Sequence record: OV876907
Source of the DNA: Escherichia phage UGJNEcP3
Length of the DNA stretch: 64,000 nucleotides
Direction: 5' to 3' (one strand)
Shown here: piece by piece, positions 62,735 through 63,190 of the stretch
How positions within the stretch are numbered: position 1 is the stretch's first letter
Layout of the letters: each line of letters starts with the position of its first letter
Notes under the pieces: model-generated
The model's database searches: none
What the model was told of the DNA's origin: nothing
What the model saw: the letters and a program-made list of their open reading frames with translations, nothing else
Made by a program: the position numbers and the translations under genes

Positions 62735-63190
62735 TTATTTTAGGTCTTCAGCCCAGTCGAGCTTCAAGGGTTCTTTATATTCTCTGTCTAAAACAACAGG
62801 AATCTGGACATCTCCACTAAAGGTAAGAGGTCCTACATTATAAGACAATGTGATATGAGGGGTATAATCATCAAAATCGTGCGTAGCACCTAAGGTACGA
62901 GCATACTGATGGCGGCATTTAAGATACTCTGAATTGAGAACCAAGACCAAGACTGGAGAATCACCATGTTTCCACACTTCAAGATGTCCTGACGAAGCAA
63001 CTTCAAAACTTCCGGATGCAACGGTGTATGGAACGTTGACTCTTGAATAGCAGATTGTAGAATGGAATTTTTCACGAGGAACCGGATTAGGAACCTTTAA
63101 AGTGCGCTGAAGATTTTCCAGCGCATCTAAAGTCAATTCAGAGAATTTTGCAGCAACGTATAGACCTTGAGCAAAATCTTCCGTTTTCAT
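62735..63190 (-). CDS. 2H-phosphoesterase-like protein, candidate Acb1/57B-type anti-CBASS cyclic-nucleotide phosphodiesterase
   Basis: two H-x-T motifs (KFHSTI, TPHITL); position upstream of 57A as for T4 57B. Confidence 0.5.

Follow-up and report, generated by a model that had tools for sequence, protein, structure and literature searches.

A small minus-strand gene borders the tail-fibre chaperone gene 57A in Escherichia phage UGJNEcP3 (record OV876907; the window analysed is the whole stretch of 64,000 nucleotides). Its coding sequence goes by the label 'RNA ligase' or 'hypothetical protein' in OV877765.1, in the T4 record NC_000866 and in many relatives, and the question arises as to what the product really is. 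The original prediction, made from the sequence itself, was a candidate Acb1-type 2H phosphoesterase. The Pfam match, the match to the FBB1 structure, the identity to the T4 protein, the conserved residues, the predicted fold and the synteny all agree with it. The gene very probably encodes Acb1, the anti-CBASS cyclic-oligonucleotide phosphodiesterase, as the orthologue of T4 gene 57B, with an activity expected from homology to the T4 and FBB1 enzymes.

The gene and its neighbourhood

Over bases 62000-64000, the window is 100% identical to OV877765.1, the record of Escherichia phage UGJNEcP4 (Straboviridae, Tevenvirinae, Dhakavirus), in which a coordinate minus 12638 gives the window coordinate. 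QL01, LHE83 and other Dhakavirus phages are about 95-96% identical to the same bases. The features of the locus are collected in Table 1.

Table 1. Position and basis of the features discussed, in window coordinates
Feature	Position	Strand	Basis or remark
acb1 (T4 gene 57B orthologue)	62735..63190	minus	151 aa plus stop codon, ATG start; annotated CDS CAH1616752.1 in OV877765.1
First catalytic H-x-T: H43-S44-T45 (T4 H44/T46)	63056..63064	minus	sequence and family alignments; catalytic role from PMC9117128
Second catalytic H-x-T: H112-I113-T114 (T4 H113/T115)	62849..62857	minus	sequence and family alignments; catalytic role from PMC9117128
C-terminal lid segment, residues 144-151 (LDWAEDLK), including W146 (T4 W147)	62738..62761	minus	aligns to T4 145-152
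Gene 57A (tail-fibre chaperone)	63190..63435	minus	Pfam GP57, E = 1.7e-28; PHROG 1002
Gene 1 (dNMP kinase), 3' part, continuing beyond the window end	63428..64000	minus	Pfam DNMK, E = 2.7e-57; full CDS 76066-76827 in OV877765.1
Internal virion/head protein genes	62435-62656, 62161-62433	minus	PHROG 8765, E = 1.8e-24; PHROG 7673, E = 6.5e-56
T4-type early-promoter-like site, GTTTACA-N16-TACTAT	62694..62722	minus	directly after the acb1 stop codon
Early-promoter-pattern matches	62722, 62158, 58630, 58299, 57840, 46675, 42973, 40137, 38736, 36160, 33705, 30915, 30492, 17556, 9378, 8360, 1959, 1337, 598	minus	

The protein had been described as one of 151 residues with two H-x-T motifs, HSTI and HITL; both are read in the translation, where H-x-[ST] occurs exactly twice. 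Matches to the product were found by tblastn in 1470 phage records; identity is 100% in MX01, about 85% in Tequatrovirus and as low as about 30% in phages of Vibrio and Salicola. Relative to T4 57B, the ORF is 71% identical in its DNA and 85% in its protein, and third codon positions account for 85 of the 130 nucleotide differences. Synonymous sites are saturated in this comparison and a Jukes-Cantor dS is not computable, so that raw proportions are given: pN is 0.137 and pS is 0.79 (saturated), giving a pN/pS of 0.17. The ORF is a genuine gene, judged from its CDS annotation in OV877765.1, its spread over phage records and the concentration of differences at third positions, and the low pN relative to pS denotes strong purifying selection. 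Three plus-strand ORFs (63148-63462, 63167-63364 and 62934-63050) were discarded as shadows of the minus-strand genes; OV877765.1 has no plus-strand CDS there.

The placement of the gene at the position of T4 gene 57B was borne out, with genes 1, 57A and 57B and the internal-protein genes ordered as in T4. More broadly, the minus-strand order 4, 2, 3, 1, 57A, 57B, internal-protein gene(s), small ORFs and tRNA cluster is common to UGJNEcP4 (OV877765.1) and T4 (NC_000866). The gene had also been said to lie immediately upstream of 57A. The adjacency is correct, but 'upstream' holds only in plus-strand coordinates: all three genes lie on the minus strand and are transcribed in the order 1, 57A, 57B, and acb1 is therefore downstream of 57A. 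The two reading frames share 1 nucleotide: the stop of 57A and the start of acb1 are merged in the sequence TAATG.

On its 3' side, acb1 is followed by two Ip8/Ip9-type internal-protein genes, whereas T4 has ipI. The products of these two genes share the N-terminus MK(A/S)YQEFI(T/A)E, which we take to resemble the capsid-targeting sequence of T4 internal proteins. Their site is the counterpart of T4 ipI, whose locus serves anti-restriction and varies from phage to phage.

Family membership and predicted fold

Alignment to the Acb1 family, a check proposed along with the original prediction, gave a full-length match: residues 8-149 align to positions 1-144 of the 144-position profile PF23474 (Acb1) of Pfam, with 197.9 bits against a cut-off of 27 and E = 8.4e-59. 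A phmmer search of all PDB chains matched the Acb1 of phage FBB1 (7T26/7T27) with E = 1.6e-58 over residues 9-148. By BLASTP, 128 of the 151 residues (85%) are identical to T4 gp57B, translated from NC_000866, in a gap-free alignment. The UniRef name of the 99%-identical cluster (P0001) is 'Anti-CBASS protein Acb1'. A scan of the product against NCBIfam gave zero family matches, a null result that is uninformative because NCBIfam has no Acb1 model. We regard membership in the Acb1 family as close to certain. This identity is already known, in that the family, whose founding member is the T4 orthologue, has its own Pfam entry, and a UniRef name exists.

The AlphaFold2 model, built on a 36-sequence alignment, has a mean pLDDT of 89.2 and a pTM of 0.82. 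Low confidence is confined to the first five and the last six residues; the latter, 146-151, fall within the lid and have a pLDDT below 50, which is consistent with a lid that would be disordered without ligand. A Foldseek search of the PDB with this model placed 7T26 and 7T27 on top (E of about 1e-19 to 4e-19, TM 0.85-0.95, rmsd 1.1-1.8 Å), and on 7T26 the model superposes over 136 columns with E = 4e-19, TM 0.87/0.95 and an rmsd of 1.1 Å. At later ranks came the Acb1-type phosphodiesterase of Burkholderia phage BCSR5, then E. coli LigT, TT0787, drCPDase, MHV ns2, plant CPDase and rotavirus VP3, a list that, for the modelled structure, is that of the 2H superfamily. The 2H fold, on which the original prediction had staked itself, is present in the predicted structure, since the latter matches 7T26/7T27 (with the 1.1 Å superposition on 7T26) and then the 2H enzymes.

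The public label suggests a different enzyme, namely a generic LigT-like 2',3'-cyclic phosphodiesterase or 2'-5' RNA ligase that would act on RNA ends in tRNA or RNA repair. PHROG 755 bears the name 'RNA ligase', which has passed into the GenBank and RefSeq records; moreover, the fold bears a distant likeness to E. coli LigT and TT0787, and phage tRNA genes lie about 2 kb from acb1. However, the Pfam family 2_5_RNA_ligase2 (PF13563) gave a partial match with E = 0.062, whose 13.8 bits fall short of the cut-off of 27 and contrast with the 198 bits scored by Acb1, and LigT superposes with a TM of about 0.5 and an rmsd of 7-8 Å, compared with 0.87-0.95 and 1.1 Å for Acb1. In addition, the T4 protein, 85% identical to the present one, is a cleaver of 3'3'-cGAMP by activity-guided fractionation (PMC9117128). 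Given the sub-threshold PF13563 score and a fold ranking that favours Acb1, we rejected the 'RNA ligase' identity, which is left with a superfamily-level kinship by fold alone, and we give an enzyme of this kind hardly any chance. The label derives from what PHROG 755 is called, not from an experiment, and it is misleading because the protein is Acb1. The main practical value of the analysis is that 'RNA ligase' and 'hypothetical protein' can be renamed Acb1 in the public record of this phage and in those of many RefSeq relatives.

Comparison with enzymes of the LigT/2H superfamily (E. coli LigT, 5LDI; TT0787 of T. thermophilus, 1IUH; the 2',5'-PDEs MHV ns2 and rotavirus VP3) points to the same distance. 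They have in common with the UGJNEcP3 protein the two H-x-T/S motifs, a pseudo-symmetric beta-sheet core and metal-independent phosphoester chemistry, but their identity is 12-18% and their TM about 0.4-0.57, they lie below the Pfam cut-off, and their targets are RNA ends or 2'-5' oligoadenylate, not 3'3' cyclic oligonucleotides. The Acb1-type phosphodiesterase of BCSR5 (9Q2G, 9Q2Y), named anti-CBASS Acb1 by its depositors, has the same 2H fold and a lid; it is a distant branch, with about 16% identity, a phmmer E of 0.018-0.19 and a TM of about 0.6-0.7.

Active site and substrate range

Acb1 owes its name to Hobbs et al. 2022, who found the T4 enzyme cleaving 3'3'-cGAMP and listed 273 homologues (PMC9117128). 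The T4 protein has a 2H phosphoesterase fold with an HxT/HxT tetrad formed by H44, T46, H113 and T115; bases are stacked by Y12, W74, F107 and W147, adenine is read by E141, and residues 145-152 form a flexible C-terminal lid that closes over the ligand (PMC9117128). It cleaves 3'3'-cGAMP, cUA, cAAA and cAAG, but not cGG or cA4, and deletion of the gene (T4 Δacb1) renders the phage more sensitive to CBASS (PMC9117128).

All nine residues named above (Y12, H44, T46, W74, F107, H113, T115, E141 and W147 in T4) are identical in the UGJNEcP3 protein, whose residue n corresponds to T4 residue n+1; the stacking aromatics are thus numbered Y11, W73, F106 and W146, and the adenine-reading glutamate E140. 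The tetrad H43, T45, H112 and T114 does not vary in either of two alignments, of 29 and of 36 homologues, which extend to identities as low as 27%. Y11 is almost invariant in both alignments, and so is E140 in the 36-sequence alignment. The lid, LDWAEDLK, aligns to LDWADDLK of T4. The likeness to T4 Acb1 (gp57B, NP_049750.1), the founding anti-CBASS nuclease, extends to the tetrad, the Y/W/F/W stack, the equivalent of E141, the lid and the locus. The differences are an N-terminus shorter by one residue and 23 substitutions, mainly at the N-terminus and in loops 56-58 and 75-80 (HGDSPV versus TQDGST in T4). The Acb1 of Erwinia phage FBB1 (7T26, apo form; 7T27, product complex), at 63-65% identity, differs in that the stacking residue equivalent to W73 is F and is followed by a one-residue insertion, and in that Y takes the place of F106.

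By homology to the T4 and FBB1 enzymes (PMC9117128), the protein would bind 3'3'-linked cyclic di- or trinucleotides containing at least one adenosine (3'3'-cGAMP, cUA, cAAA, cAAG). The ligand would sit in a U-shaped pocket whose walls would be formed by Y11, W73, F106 and W146 and in which E140 would read the adenine N6, and the C-terminal lid would then shut over the ligand. The H43/T45/H112/T114 tetrad may perform metal-independent acid-base catalysis, the adenosine 2'-OH attacking the 3'-5' bond. A 2',3'-cyclic phosphate intermediate would be formed and hydrolysed to a linear 3'-phosphate product, such as GpAp. Removal of the signal should keep CBASS effectors (Cap4, Cap5, CapV and others) inactive, and abortive infection would for this reason not be triggered. 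We infer these substrates, this chemistry and the anti-CBASS effect from the experiments on T4 and FBB1 Acb1 (PMC9117128).

Another possibility is that the protein belongs to the Acb1 family and has a substrate range shifted from that of T4, for example via the 75-80 loop, either towards other cyclic oligonucleotides or towards evasion of Panoptes-like guards. Residues 75-80 and 86, beside W73, account for six of the 23 substitutions relative to T4, and it is because the 75-80 cluster comes right after this base-stacking residue that a shift is conceivable. Acb1 is also under pressure to change, as indicated by a nonsense mutation in Bas43 and by Bas35 escape mutants under Panoptes (PMC13577387). 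However, none of the nine residues named for ligand contact or catalysis departs from T4, and the 75-80 loop varies freely among close homologues, which suggests a weak constraint rather than a specificity determinant. We consider an enzyme with a shifted range just as improbable as the RNA-end enzyme discussed above, and the particular case of a Dhakavirus Acb1 with a range unlike that of T4 Acb1 via the 75-80 loop is hardly less so. If it were true, Dhakavirus Acb1 could cut signals that T4 Acb1 spares, or could spare decoy nucleotides monitored by Panoptes. The Acb1 reading with the substrates of the T4 enzyme is kept as very probable.

Transcription signals and other loci of the window

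Between gene 4 and acb1, no early-promoter consensus of T4 type was found, and the scan for terminators returned none in 61900-64000. When patterns of early, MotA-dependent middle and late promoters were searched over about 3.5 kb upstream of acb1, the matches were limited to the early-type site that follows acb1 and, beyond the window, a late TATAAATA located 5' of gene 4; the middle-promoter pattern used was strict, and sites may have been missed. Since the start of acb1 overlaps the stop of 57A, acb1 probably shares its message with genes 1 and 57A during infection, and the overlap suggests translational coupling of acb1 with these two genes.

The early-type site that follows acb1 marks, by its sequence, the putative start of the next transcription unit, that of the internal-protein genes. 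The pattern GTTTAC[AT]-N14-18-TA[CT][AT][AC]T occurs at 19 sites in the window, 19 on the minus strand and 0 on the plus strand. An extended -10 region, TGATACTAT, is common to many of these early-type sites. At sites 62722 and 62158, the spacer forms an inverted repeat with the region past the -10 (GGTCTATAG...CTATAGACC and GGGCT...AGCCC).

A second gene related to cyclic-nucleotide signalling may be present elsewhere in the window. A 92-aa ORF at 46681-46959 (minus strand), which adjoins regB and is labelled 'hypothetical protein' in the record, matches the Pfam family PF24729, 'Acb2/Tad1 hairpin domain', with E = 3.5e-16. The T4 gene vs.4 (Acb2) presumably sits next to regB as well. Given the PF24729 match beside regB, the phage seems to encode a cyclic-nucleotide sponge of Acb2 type in addition to the Acb1 nuclease. 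The intact acb1 and the Acb2-like gene predict resistance to many CBASS systems, and also a possible sensitivity to Panoptes-type guards, which fire upon cyclic-nucleotide depletion (PMC13577387); both predictions bear on the choice of phages for therapy or host-range work.

Two further regions on the minus strand deserve mention. At 39091-41186, a gene for a 339-aa protein, labelled 'hypothetical' in the record, has weak matches to AAA/nSTAND-type NTPase and HTH_37 families, all below the Pfam cut-offs; the adjacent gene encodes a 332-aa RlaP-family nucleotidyltransferase (PF10127, E = 2.5e-10; labelled 'nucleotidyltransferase'). At 13295-16555, a run of genes annotated in OV877765.1 as thymidylate synthase, thymidylate kinase, phosphoheptose isomerase and a 557-aa hypothetical protein is flanked by a 'DNA repair protein' gene and by the gene for DNA polymerase, and this run may be a nucleotide or DNA-modification module.
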